NCBI GenBank assembly: GCA_964619725.1
Contig: CAZUFC010000066.1
Span: forward strand, 1 to 46,856
Length of the DNA: 46,856 nucleotides
Direction of reading: 5' to 3'
Origin: an uncultured bacterium
GTDB lineage: Bacteria; CSSED10-310; CAZUFC01
Positions 1 to 46,855 of the stretch are shown here, piece after piece (within the stretch, counting starts at the first letter, position 1; the number at the start of each line of letters is the position of its first letter). Position numbers and translations under genes: made by a program. Under the pieces are notes generated by a model. The model had not been told where the DNA came from, did no database searches, and worked only from the letters and a program-made list of their open reading frames with translations.

Positions 1-1
1 C

Positions 2-1312
2 TTAACGAGACTCCTTAGTATAGCGGAACTGGCGAGAAAATCGCCTGAGATGGTACTGACGACGTCGGCACATCACATAGACATCGACTTTCTGCGGGAA
101 GCTTACAGACGAACGAGGAAAGACGGTGCGGTCGGAGTAGATAAACAAACAGCCAAGGATTACGCGAAGAATCTCGAAAAGAATCTGAAAGAACTGCTGG
201 AGCGATTCAAGTCAGGAAAATACAAAGCGCCGCCGGTGAGAAGAACCTACATAGAGAAAAGCGACGGCAAGAAGAAAAGGCCGCCGGGCATACCGACATT
301 CGAGGATAAGCTGCTGCAAAAGGCAGTGCAGATGATATTGGAAGCGGTATACGAACAGGATTTCTACGATTGCTCATACGGATTCAGACCAGGCAAATCA
401 GCACACGGTGCGCTGCAAGCTATCTGGGAAGGATTAACGAAATTAGGAGGAGGATGGGTCATCGATGCAGACATTAAAAGCTACTTCGAGGAAATAGACC
501 ACAAACATCTCAGAAATTTTCTCGACCGACGGGTACGTGACGGAGTGATACGGCGAACCATAGACAAGTGGCTGAAAGCCGGAGTAATGGAAGACAAACA
601 AGTCGTCCACAGAACGGAAGGTACGCCGCAGGGCGGCGTAATAAGTCCACTGCTAGCCGACATATACCTCCATGTGGTGTTGGATGAATGGTTCGAGACT
701 GTGGTAAAGCCGCGACTTAAAGGCAAGGCATTCCTTATCCGATACGCAGATGATTTCGTAATAGTAGTCGAACAGGAAGGAGACGCGAAACGAATAATGA
801 ACGTATTGCCGAAGAGATTTTCTAAATATGGACTGACTATACACCCGGAAAAGACGAAAATGGTTGATTTCAGCAAACCGAACATGAAAGGAAGATCGAA
901 CCGAAGCGGCAAAGGGAAGGTGAAAGCGGGCACATTTGACTTGCTCGGCTTTACCCATTATTGGGGTAAATCAAGGAGAGGAAATTGGATAGTCAAACGG
1001 AAGACGGCGAAAAACCGACTGAGCAGAACGAACAGGAAGATCAACGAATACTGTAAGAGAAACCGGCACAGACCGCTGAAAGAACAGCATCACAAACTGT
1101 CAGCGATGCTCATAGGACACTACTTATATTTCGGACTGACCGGAAACGCGAAATCTCTCAGCAAACTACGGCAAGAAACCATGCGAATCTGGAAGAAGTG
1201 GCTCTCTCGCAGGTCGCAAAAGGGATACCTCACTTGGGAAAAGTTTAAGAAAATAATGGAGAAATACCCGGTACCACAAGTCAAAATGTATCAGTCAATC
1301 TACAGAACGTAG
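2..1312 (+). CDS. ltrA: Group II intron reverse transcriptase/maturase, 5'-truncated by the window, no endonuclease domain
   Basis: Motifs GIPTFEDKLLQ, SYGFRPGKS, DADIKSYF, GTPQGGVISP, RYADD, FDLLGF and the domain X-like GHYLYF. The frame is open from base 2 (LTRLLSIAELARKSPEM...), so the true start is probably upstream. No HNH domain at the C-terminus. Confidence 0.95.
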   Translation, partial: LTRLLSIAELARKSPEMVLTTSAHHIDIDFLREAYRRTRKDGAVGVDKQTAKDYAKNLEKNLKELLERFKSGKYKAPPVRRTYIEKSDGKKKRPPGIPTFEDKLLQKAVQMILEAVYEQDFYDCSYGFRPGKSAHGALQAIWEGLTKLGGGWVIDADIKSYFEEIDHKHLRNFLDRRVRDGVIRRTIDKWLKAGVMEDKQVVHRTEGTPQGGVISPLLADIYLHVVLDEWFETVVKPRLKGKAFLIRYADDFVIVVEQEGDAKRIMNVLPKRFSKYGLTIHPEKTKMVDFSKPNMKGRSNRSGKGKVKAGTFDLLGFTHYWGKSRRGNWIVKRKTAKNRLSRTNRKINEYCKRNRHRPLKEQHHKLSAMLIGHYLYFGLTGNAKSLSKLRQETMRIWKKWLSRRSQKGYLTWEKFKKIMEKYPVPQVKMYQSIYRT

Positions 1313-1329
1313 CGAAACTATGTCCTGAG

Positions 1330-1403
1330 GAGCCGGATGCCTTGATTGGGCAAGTCCGGATCTGTGAGGGGGCTGGGCGAGCAATCGCCCGGCTCTACTC
1401 GAC
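1330..1403 (+). ncRNA. Group II intron catalytic domain V and domain VI
   Basis: GAGCCGGATGCC-TTGATT-GGGCAAGTCCGGATC hairpin with the AGC triad. It is followed by the GGGCGA-GCAA-TCGCCC stem with a GNRA loop and the terminal CTACTCGAC. Confidence 0.9.
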
Positions 1404-1592
1404 AACTCGATTGTCGATTCAAAATTTAATGCTGGACAGTCACTGCGGTTTTTGATCCATAAACGAACGAATTTTTCTTAAGACAAGGATGGTAAGGATT
1501 GGCAAGGCAGGGGTGGGGCTTATACTTTGACTGAGTTAATCCGAAGACAGACTCAGTATTGGGAAAAATTCGCCGTTTATGGACAAAAACTA
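1404..1592 (+). repeat. Composite palindromic repeat, copy A (interrupted by the intron)
   Basis: Colinear with the reverse complement of 4093-4281 (about 80% identity by eye). Internal inverted arms at 1448-1476 and 1564-1590. Confidence 0.88.
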
Positions 1593-1729
1593 ATTAAAAT
1601 CTGTATGATGGATTGTTGCATATTGGTCAAATATTACACAATTTTTTTTCACTTAATGCAGGAAATCCGCTTATACATTGCTAATTCAGTTTACTGTAAA
1701 TTCTGGAATGGAAACATTGCTTTCTTTTT

Positions 1730-1758
1730 TTGACATCCCGTTAATCCGTTCATATATT
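1730..1758 (+). promoter_or_regulatory. Candidate sigma70 promoter of the protease gene
   Basis: TTGACA (1730-1735), 17-nt spacer, TATATT (1753-1758), about 70 nt upstream of the ATG at 1831. Confidence 0.6.
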
Positions 1759-1830
1759 TAAAAGCGCGATGATTCTTGAAACAAAGAGGAATCAGTTCCA
1801 GGGTAAAGGGAAAAACGGAAAGGCAGTGAA

Positions 1831-4095
1831 ATGAAAAACAGAATTTTTTTGACGGTTATTTCTGTGCTGATAATAACGTCTCCGACCGCGTTTTCCGATC
1901 CGCCTCCCACCTTCGATTTGCGTGACGTGGGCGGAGAGAATTACGTGACGTCGGTGAAAAGTCAGTCGGGCGGCACATGTTGGACTCATGGGGTGATGGC
2001 GGCCATGGAAGGCAATTTATTGATGACGGGAGCGTGGGCTGCTGCAGGCGAAACGGGTGAGCCGAATCTGGCGGAGTATCATCTGGACTGGTGGAACGGT
2101 TTCAACGAGCATAATAATGACGATACGGACCCGCCGACCGGCGGCGGTTTGGAGGTGCACATGGGCGGAGATTACCGGGTGGCTTCAGCCTATTTGTCCC
2201 GAGGGGAAGGAGCCGTGAGAGACGTAGACGGTCAATCCTATTATTCGCCGCCCTCGCGCCATGATCCGTCCTATCATTATTTTTATGCTCGGGAGATTGA
2301 ATGGTATACGATTGGGGAGGGATTAAGCGGCATCAATACGATTAAGAACATCATCATGAGTGAGGGAGTGATAGGTACCTGCATGTGTTTCAGCGATTCA
2401 TTCATATCGAATTACAGGCACTATCAACCGCCCGGAAGCGATCTCGATCCCAACCATGCCGTTGCGATCGTGGGATGGGACGACTATAAGACAACCCCGG
2501 CGCCTCAGCCAGGCGCGTGGCTTTGCAAAAACAGTTGGGGGAGTTCCTGGGGATTGAACGGCTATTTCTGGATATCTTATTATGACAAACATGCGTGTCG
2601 TCAACCCGAAATGGGCGCCATATCTTTTCAGGATGTGGAACCGATGCAGTACGACGGCTTCTACTACCATGATTATCACGGCTGGAGAGACGTGAAAACC
2701 GATTGCAGCGAAGCTTTTAACGCCTTTACAGCGGTTAAGGACGATCTCCTGGCCGCCGTATCTTTTTACACAGCGGCTTCAAGCGTGGGGTATAACGTCA
2801 AAATATACGCTGAATTTTCAGGAGGAGAACTGCAGACTCTATTGTCGGAGGAATCGGGAATTCTTCAGTACAGCGGGTTTCATACGATTGATTTAAGCGA
2901 ACCGGTCATGTTGGAGGAGGGACAGGATTTTTATATCTTCCTGTCGCTTTCCGAAGGCGGTCAGCCTTTCGACAGAACTTCTGATGTTCCTGTCCTGTTG
3001 GGAGCCGATTATAAAACTATAGTCGAGTCGTATGCCGAACCTGGTCAGAGCTATTACAAAGAAGGAGGGAGCTGGCTCGATCTTTACTATTCGGATGTTC
3101 CATACAATACGACCGCTAATTTCTGCATTAAGGGTTTAACAAAAGAGCATGGTATTGCGGTCAATCCTGAAACGTCTTTCAAATCTGACGGCGAATCCGG
3201 GGGGCCGTTCGATCCGTCGGAAGGAGGTTACCAGCTCCAGAATAAATTAGATCAGTTTCTGGAATACAATGTTTCTATCGCTCCTTCCGTAGACTGGGCT
3301 GAACTGACCTGTTCAGGTTCCGGATATCTAGCTCCGGGAGCTGATACGAACATTACGTTTAAAATAAATGCCGAAGCTCAATATTTAGAAGAAGGCGTGC
3401 ATCTCGCCGAGATTCAATTTACAAATGTGACCAATCACTATGGCGATACCGTGCGTAAAATTATCCTGTTGGTCGGGCACGAAAGCGTTCATTATGAATG
3501 GACGATGAATGAAGACCCGCAATGGAGCGTCCAGGATTTGTGGGAATTCGGCGAACCGACTGGCCAGGGCGGCGATCACGGCGGACCTGATCCCTCGCAG
3601 GGATTCACCGGCAACAATGTTTACGGCTACAATTTAAACGGAGATTATCAGAATAATCTTCCTGAAAAATACCTGACCACTTCCGCCATTGACTGCACTG
3701 ACTTGTACGGCGTGCAGCTTTCTTTCCAAAGATGGCTTGGAGTCGAGGACCCGGAGTATGACCATGCATATGTTCGGGTGAGCGCTGACGGCGATAACTG
3801 GACTACCGTATGGGCGAATGATGAAGAAATTACCGATTATGATTGGGTTCCCGTTACTTTGGATATTTCGGATGTCGCTGACGATCAACCCGAAGTATAC
3901 GTCAGATGGGTTATGGGAACTACCGACATCGGGTGGGAATATTGCGGATGGAATATTGACGACGTGAGTATAACCGGCATGCGATATTATCCGCCTGCTT
4001 CTGTTCCGGCTCTTTCTTCCTGGGCCGTCATTCTGCTGACGATTCTGCCCTTAGTATTTCAGGCAGTTCGCAAAGGAAGAAGAAATACTCGATAG
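1831..4095 (+). CDS. Secreted C1A (papain-like) cysteine peptidase with lectin-like and other beta-rich domains and an IPTL-CTERM-like tail
   Basis: Signal peptide; QSGGTCW (oxyanion Gln, catalytic Cys), NHAVAIVGWDD (His), KNSWG (Asn), GYFWISYYD; GFHTIDL and NFCIKG as in the lectin-like domain of bacterial C1 peptidases; C-terminal VPALSSW, hydrophobic helix, RKGRR. Confidence 0.9.
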   Translation: MKNRIFLTVISVLIITSPTAFSDPPPTFDLRDVGGENYVTSVKSQSGGTCWTHGVMAAMEGNLLMTGAWAAAGETGEPNLAEYHLDWWNGFNEHNNDDTDPPTGGGLEVHMGGDYRVASAYLSRGEGAVRDVDGQSYYSPPSRHDPSYHYFYAREIEWYTIGEGLSGINTIKNIIMSEGVIGTCMCFSDSFISNYRHYQPPGSDLDPNHAVAIVGWDDYKTTPAPQPGAWLCKNSWGSSWGLNGYFWISYYDKHACRQPEMGAISFQDVEPMQYDGFYYHDYHGWRDVKTDCSEAFNAFTAVKDDLLAAVSFYTAASSVGYNVKIYAEFSGGELQTLLSEESGILQYSGFHTIDLSEPVMLEEGQDFYIFLSLSEGGQPFDRTSDVPVLLGADYKTIVESYAEPGQSYYKEGGSWLDLYYSDVPYNTTANFCIKGLTKEHGIAVNPETSFKSDGESGGPFDPSEGGYQLQNKLDQFLEYNVSIAPSVDWAELTCSGSGYLAPGADTNITFKINAEAQYLEEGVHLAEIQFTNVTNHYGDTVRKIILLVGHESVHYEWTMNEDPQWSVQDLWEFGEPTGQGGDHGGPDPSQGFTGNNVYGYNLNGDYQNNLPEKYLTTSAIDCTDLYGVQLSFQRWLGVEDPEYDHAYVRVSADGDNWTTVWANDEEITDYDWVPVTLDISDVADDQPEVYVRWVMGTTDIGWEYCGWNIDDVSITGMRYYPPASVPALSSWAVILLTILPLVFQAVRKGRRNTR

Positions 4096-4297
4096 TTTTT
4101 GTCAATAAACGACGAATTTCCACCAATGCTGCGTCAGGCTGCGGATTGGCTCAGTCAACTTATAATAAATATGCCTCCTTCGCAAATCCTTGCCTTCCTT
4201 GCCTTAAGAAAAATTCGCTCGTTTATGGATCAAAAAACCAAGTGGCTGTCAAGCATTAAATTTTGAATCGAGATTCGAGTTTTTGGACAGACACTCG
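4093..4297 (-). repeat. Composite palindromic repeat, copy B (complete)
   Basis: Inverted relative to copy A. Fills nearly the whole gap between two convergent genes, and its first TAG is the protease stop codon. Confidence 0.88.
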
Positions 4298-4302
4298 ATA
4301 GA

Positions 4303-6600
4303 TTAATCGGAACCGCGTTTCGTATTCATATGCCACAGAATCAATAAAACAAGATTCAGAATAAACGGAATCATCAGCGTTCTCCTTACCCCTGTCAGAG
4401 GAATGAAAAAAACGCTGATCAATATGGTACCGACGCCGGCGCCCAACAAATCTGCAGCATAGGTCCCGCCGGCCGTTTCTGACGCGCTTTTTCCCTGAAC
4501 AGCGAACGCTTCGGCGCTGAAACGGTATAAAATTCCCTGAAGGAATCCGGAAATGAGGACGAAAAAATAGAGAAGATACTTGCCCCATTTTATTCCGAAA
4601 TATAAAGGAATTTCCGGCTTAATCATGGGAAAACTTATCAGCGCCAACGTCAGTATTCCCGCCGTTTTAATTCCTTTTAAAGGGTCCAGCCGGCGAAACG
4701 CCTTCGACTGATGCGTTATGCTTCCTGCTCCCAGGCCCAGCATGAAAAGAGTAAACAAAATCGCTATAAGCGAATAAATATTTCCGTATATGATCTGAAA
4801 GACCAGTATAAATACTAACTCAAGGCAGATGAAAGTGAATCCGTAGAGGGTCAGTCCGGACAGAAGCAGGAATTTTCGCCTGGATGACTTCCGGCTCACA
4901 ATCGTGGGAATGACCATAAACCCGGCGCTGATGATAATGAAAATCACGGCGATATCCAACTCGGCCAGAAACTTGAACAGATCGCTTAATCCAGACCTCA
5001 GCAATGACGCCCACAGGATAATATTGAAATAATAGCATCTCGGTCTGAAATCCTTGTTGAGAGGTACATTCTTTTTCGACTCCAATTCGGCATGCAACTC
5101 GGAGAGACGGTCAGGCGCCAGTTCAAACGGAATGGTGTACCGGTTGAAATATTCCGTTTCTATGTTCCTTTTTTCAAACCGCCGTATGAGCTCAGACGCA
5201 TCATCGGTGGGATACTCCGAATCAGAAGCGTAAAAACGGGCCGTGCCGCCAGGAAATATCACCACGTAACCAAAAACGCTCTCCAATGATCGTTTCAAAG
5301 AGGACAGATACGATTTCAAATCCTCGGTATAATAGTTTTCCGCTGAAGATGCGTTTAATGCCAATACTCCTTCCGAAGTCAGACGCTCCCTCGCTTCATC
5401 GAAAAATTCCACAGTGTAAAAACGGTTTAATTGCGCATTGATCGGGTCAGGAAGCATTATCAGTATAACGTCGTACCGTTGATCGGATTTTCTTAAGTAT
5501 CCCCGGCCGTCGTCAAAATGAAACCTGTATCGGGTCCTGTCGCGGGGGAAATTCTGAGGTATCAGCTTCAGGGCTGTCCTTACCGTTTGAGGGTCAGGTT
5601 CCGCGTAATCCAGATGTTCCACGGGATGCTTCAGTATCTCCCTGACTGCTCCGGATACTCCGCCTCCAATCAACAGCGCCCTCTTCGGATTCGGATGCTG
5701 AAGCATGCAAAAATGAACCTCTTTCTCCACGATCCATTTGAACGGATGGCTAGCCGTCAGAAAACCGTTTTCAAAAAAAGAAACCTGATCCTCCTGACGA
5801 GTTACCGCTAAATTGCCGTAAAGACCATCCCGGGAAAGGATTAATTCGTAAGGCGACCAGAAATTTGCACGTGTCCAGGTTTCCAGTTTCGACAGAGGTC
5901 CCTGCCAATACGGAAAAGCAGCGATCAGCGCTGAAAATATCAGTATAATCTTGCTTTGCGGGCTCGACGAAGGCGAATGAAAAAAGAGTATTAATAGACT
6001 CATTAACGACAAAACGCAGTAGACCTGGAAAATCGATAACACCGATGCATGACTGGAAAAACATATCCACGTAATTACTCCTCCCAAAGCAGAACCGAAA
6101 CTCTCAAACGCATAAACCGTCGATACGCTTAAACCAGCTCCAAGTCCGCACATCCGAGCCGACCATTCGCTTTCCAATACGAATACCTTCCCCCATATGA
6201 ATCCCACTGGTCCTAAAATCGCCAAAGGAACAAGAAACATTATCCCAGGACCCAATAACTCCCCAGGATGATAGCCCAAACAAAACTTTATGCTTCTTGT
6301 CCCTATTACCGTTATTAAAAAAAGAAATATCTCAGACGCTAAAAATAACGATAGCCGACTTTTCAGTTTTTCGATTCCCCAATTCCCTGACTTCCCGTAA
6401 GAATGCCGACTGCCCGCTCCCACCCAGAATAACCATAACGCCAGCATCATTCCTATGGATAACTCATTACCCGTAAACAATATCAGCATCTCACGCAACA
6501 GAAGAACCTGCGACGTCATCGATGACGCTCCCGTAAATAATACGAGCAATACGCAGCCGAAACCGAATCTCGTCGTTCTGTCACTTGCCGCCGATTTCAT
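4303..6600 (-). CDS. Membrane-bound spermidine synthase-like protein (fused multi-TM/aminopropyltransferase fold)
   Basis: N- and C-terminal TM bundles (GNELSIG, YAFESFGSALGG, YAADLLGAGVG). Central SpeE-like domain: LLIGGGVSG, EPDP, DDGRGYL, LPDP, FYTVEFF. Confidence 0.85.
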   Translation of the reverse strand: MKSAASDRTTRFGFGCVLLVLFTGASSMTSQVLLLREMLILFTGNELSIGMMLALWLFWVGAGSRHSYGKSGNWGIEKLKSRLSLFLASEIFLFLITVIGTRSIKFCLGYHPGELLGPGIMFLVPLAILGPVGFIWGKVFVLESEWSARMCGLGAGLSVSTVYAFESFGSALGGVITWICFSSHASVLSIFQVYCVLSLMSLLILFFHSPSSSPQSKIILIFSALIAAFPYWQGPLSKLETWTRANFWSPYELILSRDGLYGNLAVTRQEDQVSFFENGFLTASHPFKWIVEKEVHFCMLQHPNPKRALLIGGGVSGAVREILKHPVEHLDYAEPDPQTVRTALKLIPQNFPRDRTRYRFHFDDGRGYLRKSDQRYDVILIMLPDPINAQLNRFYTVEFFDEARERLTSEGVLALNASSAENYYTEDLKSYLSSLKRSLESVFGYVVIFPGGTARFYASDSEYPTDDASELIRRFEKRNIETEYFNRYTIPFELAPDRLSELHAELESKKNVPLNKDFRPRCYYFNIILWASLLRSGLSDLFKFLAELDIAVIFIIISAGFMVIPTIVSRKSSRRKFLLLSGLTLYGFTFICLELVFILVFQIIYGNIYSLIAILFTLFMLGLGAGSITHQSKAFRRLDPLKGIKTAGILTLALISFPMIKPEIPLYFGIKWGKYLLYFFVLISGFLQGILYRFSAEAFAVQGKSASETAGGTYAADLLGAGVGTILISVFFIPLTGVRRTLMIPFILNLVLLILWHMNTKRGSD

Positions 6601-32827: not shown

Positions 32828-34372
32828 TTGAAAAAAACGAAAGGTTTAGAGTCATCAGCAGTTCAATGGATCATGATCGGGGCTGTTTTTCTTTTCACGG
32901 CGTGGCTTGTCATTGACTTTTTTCAGGGCAATCCTGTTTCACCGGCCGCTTTCATCAGATCGCTGTTGGAAAACAAGGTCTTTATGATTATGACTTTGGC
33001 GCTTGGGGCTATGCTTATACTTTCTCTGGCTCTGAGATTCCTGGGTAAATTTTACAATATGGCGAGAAAGAAGATGCCCGGTTATGCCGAATCCCGGAAG
33101 AAGGCAGGAGAGACAAGTTCATTAAAGTCTGACAAATTCAATGTTAGAGTCTACGATTATTTTGAACCGTCAGAGATCGACACGATGATGAAAAGGCTTT
33201 CGCAACAGGCGAATGTGGATATTCCGGCATTAGTTGATTTTTTTTTAGCCCAGGCTGTAGGACAGGGCGCCAGCGATATTCATCTGGAACCCACAGAGCA
33301 TGAAATCGTATTGAGGTACAGGATTGACGGGGTATTGCATGAGATCAGTTCTTTGCCCAAAAGGCTGCATGCCCGTATCTGTTCCCGATTGCGAGTATTG
33401 TCGAATTTATCGATTTACGAAAAAGGAAAACCCCAGGACGGACGATTACAGGTTAAAATCAAGGAAAAAAGTTTTGAGGTAAGAATATCCATTTTACCGA
33501 CGTTACACGGAGAGAAGGTCGTCATAAGGCTTTTTGAAACTGGAGAACTCAAGTTCAACCTGGATAAACTCGGCTTCGATCAGGAAACGCTGGAAAAATA
33601 CAAGGGATTGCTGACGAAACCCCAGGGAACGGTATTCCTGACAGGACCGACAGGAAGCGGAAAAACCACGACGATTTATTCTTCGATGATCTGGCTGTAT
33701 AAAAGAGCGGAAAAATCTGTGAACATAGTAACGATTGAGGACCCGATCGAAAGAGACCTGTCGCAATTCAACCAGACCCAGGTCGACGTGAATCGCGGAT
33801 TGTCGTTTGCTGCGGGATTAAGGACCATATTGCGTCAGGACCCCGACATAATTATGGTCGGCGAGATTCGCGATTATGAAACAGCCAAGATCGCCATTCA
33901 GGCCGGACTTACCGGGCATCTGGTCTTTACGACCGTTCACAGCGATTCGGCTGCAGGCGTCATAAATCGCATAATCAATATGCAGATCGAACCTTTTCTG
34001 CTCGCTTCATCCACAACCGCTGTTCTGGCGCAAAGATTGATCCGCAAGATTTGTCCCCATTGCCGTTACGAAACCATTCCCCCTTTGAAGCTTCTCAAAA
34101 AGTGCAATTTGCCGGCCGATATGAACCTGAGATATTATGCCTCCAAGGGATGCGAAAAATGCATGAATACAGGTTTCAAGGGAAGAACCGGCATCTTTGA
34201 ATTGATGGAAATCGACGATGATCTCAGGGATAAAATCGTCAAAAAGGTTCCCTCCAGAGAGATTTACAAAATGGCTGTCTCCAAAGGCATGAATACCCTC
34301 ATGAGCCAAGGACTGAAAAAGGTTTCTTCGGGGGAAACGACTCTTTCGGAGCTGTTGCGCGTTATTTCATAA
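32828..34372 (+). CDS. GspE/PilB-family secretion ATPase with two N-terminal hydrophobic helices
   Basis: ASDIHLEP, RIDG, PQDG, Walker A GPTGSGKTT, TIEDPIE, LRQDPDIIMVGEIRD, TGHLVFTTVH, CPHC/CEKC; TTG start after AAGGA. Confidence 0.92.
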   Translation: MKKTKGLESSAVQWIMIGAVFLFTAWLVIDFFQGNPVSPAAFIRSLLENKVFMIMTLALGAMLILSLALRFLGKFYNMARKKMPGYAESRKKAGETSSLKSDKFNVRVYDYFEPSEIDTMMKRLSQQANVDIPALVDFFLAQAVGQGASDIHLEPTEHEIVLRYRIDGVLHEISSLPKRLHARICSRLRVLSNLSIYEKGKPQDGRLQVKIKEKSFEVRISILPTLHGEKVVIRLFETGELKFNLDKLGFDQETLEKYKGLLTKPQGTVFLTGPTGSGKTTTIYSSMIWLYKRAEKSVNIVTIEDPIERDLSQFNQTQVDVNRGLSFAAGLRTILRQDPDIIMVGEIRDYETAKIAIQAGLTGHLVFTTVHSDSAAGVINRIINMQIEPFLLASSTTAVLAQRLIRKICPHCRYETIPPLKLLKKCNLPADMNLRYYASKGCEKCMNTGFKGRTGIFELMEIDDDLRDKIVKKVPSREIYKMAVSKGMNTLMSQGLKKVSSGETTLSELLRVIS

Positions 34373-34461
34373 AAAAAATCTTTCGTTTTTGGATCAGAAA
34401 CCGCAGCGCTTGTCCAGCATCGAAATTTGAATCGGGAATCGAGTTTATGGACAAGCGCTCG
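34373..34461 (-). repeat. Composite palindromic repeat, copy C (partial)
   Basis: Matches about 4209-4297 in the same orientation. Perfect 12-bp arms AGCGCTTGTCCA (34405-34416) and TGGACAAGCGCT (34448-34459). Confidence 0.82.
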
Positions 34462-46312: not shown

Positions 46313-46855
46313 TTATTTATTCAATTCCCTTCGGAATTGTCTTTGTACGTTGATGATTATCCCGCCGAGACCCAGCAGCAAAATGAAGATTCCCGCGTTT
46401 CCCATAGAGGGAACGGGCGGTGGAGTCGTTACAATCGTGGGAGTGGGCGTCGGGAATTGGAACGGAGTATTGGTGGGGGTGAATGTGGGGAATTGGAACG
46501 GCGTATTGGTCGGCGTATTGGTTGGAAATCCGGAAGGAGTCCCGGTCGGCGTGCGGGTCGGCGTGTTGGTCGGGAATTGGAACGGCGTGTTGGTGGGAGT
46601 GAACGTCGGGAATGAGAACGGCGTGTTTGTCGGCGTATTCGTCGGAAATCCTGAAGGCGTATCGGTGGGCGTTCTGGTCGGAGTATTAGTCGGGAATGAG
46701 AAAGGCGTATTTGTGGGAGTGAATGTGGGTATGGGGGCTTGAGTGTTGGTTGGAGTGAACGTGGGTACGGGAGCCTGAGTGTTGGTTGGAGTGAAAGTGG
46801 GCAGCGGAGGTGATGTGTTGGTTGCGGTCGGAGTGGCGGTTGCTGTGGGCGTCGC
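46313..46855 (-). CDS. C-terminus of a Pro/Thr-repeat (mucin-like) surface protein with an IPTL-CTERM-like tail; start outside the window
   Basis: My translation of an open 180-aa frame: ...[10 protein letters not shown](S/Q)[11 protein letters not shown](D/G)TPSGF... then [33 protein letters not shown]. The repeats differ mainly at synonymous positions in this frame. Confidence 0.9.

Follow-up and report, generated by a model that had tools for sequence, protein, structure and literature searches.

The window, by which is meant the whole stretch of 46,856 nucleotides analysed here, begins inside a group II intron, and this intron ends exactly where a copy of a dispersed, 203-nt MITE resumes. 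The reading favoured here, with a probability of roughly 0.85, is that an endonuclease-less (En-less) intron of IIB size retrohomes site-specifically into TGTCCATA/AAC (the slash marks the insertion point), a motif of the MITE terminal inverted repeat. The intron's target would then be a short stretch of the terminal repeat, which the host transposon has to conserve and which each of its copies carries on both strands. As such, it would provide a natural example of an intron without an endonuclease reaching targets that are both safe and abundant.

The intron and its junctions

The window covers bases 1 to 46,856 of contig C66, from an assembly of 9.17 Mb (~9.2 Mb) in 344 contigs with 47% GC, and the sequence of this genome is present in microbial-mat metagenome runs. 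Positions 1..1403 (plus strand) hold the 3' 1.4 kb of the intron, comprising the end of domain IV with its ORF, followed by D5 and D6; the contig start truncates the element, which shows 89% identity to C247:33-1435. The intron-encoded reverse transcriptase/maturase (IEP) ORF at 2..1312 (plus strand) is open at the window start and specifies 436 aa, but in C257 and C247 an ATG, read by eye, lies 29 nt upstream of the equivalent of window base 1, giving a protein of ~446 aa. It matches TIGR04416 (group II intron RT/maturase) over residues 30-404 of 436 with 353 bits (cut-off 300), and its sole Pfam match is RVT_1 (E 5e-35). Searches with Pfam and TIGR04416 found no HNH match and no domain after the maturase region, and so the absence of an endonuclease, as claimed in the original prediction, is upheld. 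The ORF is intact in C66 and also in C247, where there is one stop within the 450 codons from its start.

Domains V and VI occupy 1328..1403 (plus strand), with the 3' splice site after ...CTCGAC. RF00029 (D5-D6) aligns end-to-end, covering model positions 1-77 of 77, with a score of 35.3 bits (E 9.6e-5) against a gathering score of 40 bits, and at gathering thresholds there was no Rfam match anywhere in the window. One non-standard pair was flagged in D5 (1328-1365), where a G.A replaces the consensus G.U in the catalytic-triad (lower) helix. Because of this mismatch and the score under the gathering threshold, the competence of the ribozyme is not assured. The 3' end of the intron, CTACTCGAC, finishes at 1403, and a boundary between intron and repeat at 1403/1404 had been proposed from the letters alone; it is borne out by RF00029, which stops at 1403, and by the similarities to two other repeat copies in the window, both of which start at 1404. 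The 5' ends of the intron, found on other contigs, read GTGCG (C302, C309) or GTACG (C171), and together with the 3' end, ...CTCGAC, they agree with the conserved ends of group II introns (5' GUGYG, 3' AY). Over its first 30 nt the intron shares 96.7% identity with the start of L010, another intron.

Searches of the assembly with blastn and tblastn placed the intron at four locations. In C66 (the window, with the full ORF) the sequence ...CTACTCGAC is followed by AACTCGATTGTCG..., which is the left MITE end. At C247:33-1435 (89% nt and 90.7% aa identity) it is followed by AACGGCGAATTTTCCC..., the reverse complement of the right MITE end. The copy at C257:1-255 (L095), from which most of the ORF is deleted, runs into AACTCTATTGTCG..., again the left MITE end, and a 5'-truncated remnant at C224:554-932 runs into AACTCATTC..., with recognisable, if diverged, MITE sequence after it. 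Junctions at the 5' side were located with a regular expression that matched the repeat arm where it runs into non-repeat sequence. C302 and C309 both read ...TTAGTGCCTGTCCATA/GTGCGCCAAGAAGC... in the left repeat, the intron starting GTGCGCC and taking up the last 34-36 nt of the contig, whereas C171 reads ...GGTTTTTGTCCATA/GTACGCCAAG... in the right repeat, with an intron start of GTACGCC and 80 nt of intron. The 5' exon ending that had been predicted from the intron-free repeats is thus present in all three. Every junction, three 5' and four 3' (7/7), lies at TGTCCATA/AAC within MITE-family sequence, five of them in the left terminal repeat (in one case a diverged form) and two (C171 and C247) in the right terminal repeat with the intron reversed. 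Joining the exons restores the MITE consensus exactly; for the junction of the window itself (1403..1404, plus strand), 5' exons taken from elsewhere (...TGTCCATA) and the AACTCG... that follows the intron give the uninterrupted consensus AGTGTCTGTCCATAAACTCG.... The proposal that this multicopy repeat serves as the homing site is supported by this uniformity, and the flanks of the additional copies, which had been named as a check, are of the expected kind: the 3' ends in C247, C257 and C224 all abut the MITE family, and no unrelated site was seen in the genome.

Duplications that nearly match were read by eye in the flanks of C171 (CAGGTA) and C247 (TAGGTA), and the two contigs are therefore considered to be the two sides of one occupied MITE. 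How C302 and C309 pair with C66 and C257 is ambiguous since all four carry TAATT. The number of junctions fits three copies with both ends, namely a full-length and a delta-ORF copy of the form found in C66 and C257 (type 1) and a full-length copy of the form found in C171/C247 (type 2), so that independent insertions are few: three copies with ends, plus remnants. The delta-ORF copy of C257 occupies the same MITE site and keeps ~36 codons, a 44-nt RT piece and D5-D6, and a Logan contig of run X1 with a 55-to-1302 joint corresponds to this form. Logan contigs of the same run also show two sequence variants over 575-853. A further remnant, of 59 nt and 78% identity, covers D5-D6 at C103:19883-19941 (L009) and adjoins an inverted copy of MITE hairpin 1 (described below). 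Upstream of the occupied MITE in C302, at 3590-3628 (L092), there is a terminator-like hairpin with a T run, CCCGCGAGCGGGGGTATTTTTT, lying 13 nt from the MITE and 27 nt from the intron site. It is taken as a coincidence because the other 5' flank, C309, is without one.

Most of the 5' half of the intron is absent from the assembly. Searches for domains I-III, by blastn with the L010 5' region and by nhmmer with a profile of 11 related 5' regions, recovered only the first 36-80 nt of the intron, with matches at C171:1-78 and in the final 34-36 nt of C302 and C309. A metagenome scan with the first 24 nt of the intron returned one contig, L010, which is a different, GC-rich intron with ~30 nt in common, and a scan of viral contigs gave 0 matches. 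Among other genomes, intron DNA was seen in 1/40, as a 77-nt D5-D6 stretch only. No contig in the assembly, and no Logan contig listed, spans a complete intron with both flanks.

Read evidence was sought by comparing the Logan contigs of four runs with window positions 1-4700. None of those listed bridges 1403/1404 and several stop at 1404; the loose ends before 1404 read ...TTAGTGACTGTCCATA and represent other, empty MITE copies, which say nothing of an empty allele of the copy next to the intron. Likewise, among the Logan rows listed there was no loose end at 4281/4282 that would indicate an intron-filled form of the second repeat copy in the window, contigs being assemblies that drop rare variants. 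Word depths in these data were ~10 for unique sequence, 8-36 for the intron and 950-3300 for the MITE, values that are not copy numbers. Given such repeats, chimeric joins of intron and MITE made by the assembler at contig ends should be considered: the MAG of 344 contigs breaks at the MITE, listed Logan contigs stop at 1404, none of the three 5' junctions is farther than 36-80 nt from a contig end, and contig ends cut the intron in C66, C247 and C257. An artefact of this kind is nevertheless extremely improbable, as 1403 nt of sequence precede the C66 junction and 45 kb follow it, and the seven junctions share the same nucleotide, canonical intron ends (GTGCG...AC) and an exactly restored MITE consensus. 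Nested repeats, with an intron inside a MITE, fragment this MAG, and the absent 5' half of the intron shows how elements can be lost from metagenome assemblies.

The repeat that carries the intron

The repeat unit is 203 nt long, non-coding and multicopy. A profile of 111 full-length copies gave 603 matches in the assembly with nhmmer (~69 kb in total), consisting of 149 full-length copies, 231 with the left part only, 80 with the right part only and 143 others, and blastn with the second window copy as query gave 467 HSPs genome-wide. Dozens of contigs terminate within it. The unit is bounded by imperfect terminal inverted repeats, AGTGnCTGTCCATAAAC at the left and, as reverse complement, AGTTTTTGTCCATAAAC at the right. 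Identical 5-bp flanks were found at 82 of the 104 full copies with recognisable boundaries, and flanks identical at 4/5 or more positions at 91, against 5.6 expected with shuffled partners. The duplications have the consensus TANNT, the commonest being TAATT (14/82 copies). Because of these terminal inverted repeats and target-site duplications, the dispersed repeat is a MITE and not just an extragenic palindrome. An earlier description of it as a dispersed palindromic repeat was correct in that it is multicopy, as the 603 matches attest, but a palindrome alone does not account for its ends and duplications.

Three copies occur in the window, all of them intergenic, at gene ends or upstream of a gene. 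Copy A (1404..1590, plus strand; element positions 15-203) follows the intron directly, its first part, AACTCGATTGTCGATTCAAAATTTAATGCTGGACAGTCACT, spanning 1404-1444, and its right terminal repeat, ...CCGTTTATGGACAAAAAC, ends at 1590. The right target-site duplication, TAATT, is at 1591..1595 (plus strand), and the candidate 5' flanks in C302 and C309 both end in ...TAATT before AGTGCC. Copy B (4095..4295, minus strand) is intron-free, lies between two convergent genes and is flanked by TATCG duplications at 4296-4300 and 4090-4094, with the empty site between 4282 and 4281. Copy C (34373..34459, minus strand) is a short form of 87 nt, also intron-free, located between convergent ORF ends and with its empty site between 34446 and 34445. 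A repeat search paired 1404-1592 with 4093-4281 (189 nt, 81%) and 1404-1476 with 34373-34445 (73 nt, 84%), both alignments starting exactly at 1404. On the minus strand, copies B and C read ...AGTGTCTGTCCAAA/AACTCG and ...AGCGCTTGTCCATA/AACTCG, in agreement with the intron-free sequences that had been quoted for them. Insertions of the MITE can be placed right at gene 3' ends: the TAG stop (4093-4095) of a 754-aa peptidase_C1/lectin-like ORF (1831-4095) is made of the duplicated TA and the last base of copy B, and the ORF at 32828-34372 (stop at 34370-34372) ends on the base adjoining copy C. At the far end of the window, positions 46401-46824 hold direct repeats, spaced at 36 nt and at 84-120 nt and rich in GTGGG/GTTGG, which are probably part of a repetitive coding region.

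The left portion of the MITE forms a hairpin (hairpin 1) with 12-nt arms, AGTGnCTGTCCA and TGGACAGnCACT, the 3' arm of copy A being at 1433-1444. This stem is the left terminal repeat pairing with an internal inverted copy of itself. The claim that the intron cuts the repeat 2 nt after the 5' arm of a 12-bp stem is confirmed, with the qualification that all 12 pairs form in only 17 of the 111 full-length copies; 11/12 pairs form in 78, 10/12 in 14 and 9/12 in 2, position 5 of the stem being mostly mismatched. The remainder of the unit folds as a second long hairpin (hairpin 2) closed by the right terminal repeat (copy B: RNA z -3.0, DNA z -0.95). A terminator scan did not flag the MITE hairpin, the loop of which exceeds the length that the scan allows.

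The MITE was found in none of 13 other genomes of the same phylum (completeness 60-96%). A search for an autonomous IS found no transposase-bearing partner, with 85 motif sites outside MITE matches listed and one candidate (C75) inspected. Another repeat family, at the ends of C99, C248 and C274 and at C162:28-81, has an end, GTTCCTGTCCACAAAATAGAAAGTC..., resembling the MITE terminal repeat and is assembled for only ~80 nt; it could be the autonomous partner of the MITE or a second MITE.

Target recognition and spread

The left and right sites have in common TGTCCATA/AAC (about -9..+3) and AGT at -14..-12, and they differ at -11..-9, which is GCC at the left and TTT at the right. Their structural settings are not the same. 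At the left end the site falls within the hairpin 1 loop, where an insertion had indeed been described, whereas the right-end site is inside the stem of hairpin 2, to which that description does not extend. Since the two sites share sequence and not structure, the target is the sequence, with the loop location incidental. On the favoured reading the hairpin is just the MITE's own inverted repeat and not what the intron recognises.

These observations bear on a comparison with IIC introns that accompanied the original prediction. IIC introns target terminator or attC stem-loops (see PMC7923331). They use an upstream hairpin and a very short IBS1. The window intron resembles them in having no endonuclease domain, in its harmless intergenic sites and in the palindrome beside the site, so that the DNA hairpin of the repeat might likewise be recognised and the intron inserted at a fixed place relative to it, as the position of the left-end site, 2 nt past the 5' arm of the 12-nt stem, could suggest. 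Such structural targeting is very improbable. IIC introns insert after a complete upstream hairpin and show no EBS2, but here the 5' exon has one arm only and the sites are in a loop at one end of the MITE and in the stem of a different hairpin at the other. In addition, the relatives of the intron have ~690 nt of RNA before the ORF, which makes them IIB-sized and not IIC-sized, all four of those tested match RF02005 (D1-D4-6) with 116-128 bits, and they pair with the exon through a 6-nt EBS1 and, in some cases, an EBS2-like segment. The IIC comparison is accordingly a misfit.

The nearest reverse transcriptases are at most 59% identical in genomes and at most 55% in plasmids, and these relatives were used as a guide to how the exon is read. 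In an alignment of 11 related 5' regions, a loop GTT-NNNNNN-AGC at about nt 223 is complementary to exon positions -6..-1 and represents EBS1/IBS1. Among the nine relatives with a readable exon, pairing is 6/6 in L048, L055, L065 and L073, 5/5 in L064, 5/6 in L056 and L067, and 4/6 in L085 and L010. The loop has five sequences in these nine, with TGAATG, TCCCAT, TCCCGT and ACACCT in the seven that pair well and the fifth in L010. Further upstream, a GGTTGTT segment is complementary, by eye, to exon positions -14..-8 in three relatives and is EBS2-like. Where a genome has several near-identical copies of a relative, the flanks have only ~5-15 nt of 5' exon in common and beyond that are unrelated.

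Several other features of the relatives were seen in passing. L048, L054, L055, L056, L058, L064, L065, L067, L073 and L085 start with TTGCGCC and not GTGCG, a boundary set in several of them by the EBS1/IBS1 pairing. In L058 the 3' end, ...CCACCCGGT, runs directly into the 5' end TTGCGCC, which could reflect circular permutation of this contig, a tandem copy or an intron circle. In L048, L058, L064 and L067 D5 reads, by eye, GAACCG...CGGGTC, that is, with A.G, and RF00029 gave no gathering-level match in four relatives. The genome also carries a second, unrelated group II intron at C274 ~1105-3110 (L001), located outside the MITE, with an RF00029 match above the cut-off (49 bits at 3033-3110) and an RT 33% identical to that of the window.

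By analogy with these relatives, the intron RNA most likely base-pairs with its target, EBS1 pairing with TCCATA (-6..-1) and EBS3 with the A at +1, while EBS2 would read the segment further upstream, AGTGCCT or AGTTTTT. Integration would proceed by reverse splicing, in the MITE orientation at the left repeat and in the opposite orientation at the right repeat, and could be primed from host replication as for other En-less introns; both the priming and present-day activity are things that we infer.

The supply of sites is large. The 11-mer TGTCCATAAAC occurs 374 times on both strands, compared with 5.1 expected; in 174 cases the next base is T (left type) and in 184 it is G (right type). As the two terminal repeats both contain the motif, a MITE provides one site per strand. 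The occupied form, TGTCCATAGT[GA]CG, occurs three times, so that the 377 exact sites comprise 374 empty and 3 occupied ones. Such a low occupancy points to an activity that is low, recent or extinct. The ~370 empty sites beside 3 occupied ones make this a natural system for studying what limits the spread of group II introns, candidate factors being a replication-strand bias, the match to IBS2, occlusion of the site by the hairpin, and decay of the ribozyme.

With so few insertions, it could be argued that the intron entered one MITE on a single occasion and that the loaded MITE was then copied, whether by transposase, duplication or recombination. The two type-1 copies share one MITE subfamily (AGTGCC..., ATTGTCGATTC...), and TAATT is the duplication at every candidate flank. 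Transposition of a single composite cannot, however, yield the C171/C247 copy, which is reversed and in the other terminal repeat, and TAATT is merely the commonest duplication of the family. Between C66 and C257 the host MITEs are 92.1% identical (174/189), while the shared intron parts agree at 153/157 positions. As the hosts differ more than the introns, a spread of the intron after the MITE copies had diverged is mildly favoured, and copying of one loaded MITE is very improbable.

Repeated homing, the preferred reading, could have gone a step further. The two intron lineages (89% nt identity) may have divided the two MITE terminal repeats between them through changes in EBS2, type 1 (C66, C257) using AGTGCCTGTCCATA and type 2 (C171/C247) using AGTTTTTGTCCATA, but this is a tentative and rather doubtful idea. 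If true, the split between lineages would amount to target subfunctionalisation within one genome. With over 370 sites, the MITE would act as a landing pad across the whole genome, one end of a MITE would be disabled with each insertion, and the intron would be a parasite of a parasite.

Comparison with known systems

Dispersed extragenic palindromic repeats also serve as landing sites in Pseudomonas, and in an account of REP-associated mobile elements the group II intron of P. putida KT2440 is reported at REP sequences in 2/9 copies, or 22% (PMC1525189). REPs are not MITEs, however, and that association is partial, whereas all seven junctions of the present intron are at one nucleotide position. 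Among the open-access papers searched, none was seen to report a MITE as the homing target of such an intron.

Bacterial group II introns are described as often residing in other mobile elements, for example RmInt1 in ISRm2011-2 (PMC1802570, PMC8914252), and for RmInt1, which is En-less, priming from replication has been described (PMC8914252). As presented in these articles, RmInt1 is similar to the window intron in its En-less IEP of ~420 aa and in having a preferred target inside a multicopy mobile element (PMC1802570, PMC8914252). An IEP without D and En domains, a feature of the RmInt1/RmInt2 lineage, is found in the window intron as well, with TIGR04416 ending at residue 404/436 and no HNH match. 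This lineage is bacterial class D. The RmInt1 site is reportedly inside the IS and not in its terminal repeat, so that an element has a single site.

A closer parallel is seen in RmInt2 of Sinorhizobium meliloti GR4, which is described as related to RmInt1, with an IEP lacking the endonuclease and with all copies within the inverted repeats of ISRm17 (PMC4615759). Its authors point out that two opposite-strand sites per element double the number of targets and guarantee a site on the lagging strand (PMC4615759). An En-less IEP, copies located in the terminal inverted repeats of a transposable element, and two sites on opposite strands are all shared with the window intron. The host elements differ, ISRm17 being an IS with a transposase, whereas the present intron uses a non-autonomous MITE of 203 nt, found in hundreds of copies, the terminal repeats of which differ at -11..-9. 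The likeness is one of strategy, any kinship would be putative, and the best Sinorhizobium plasmid match among those listed (S. fredii) is 41% identical. RmInt2 is nonetheless the closest precedent, the same strategy being used here with a far more numerous, non-autonomous host element.
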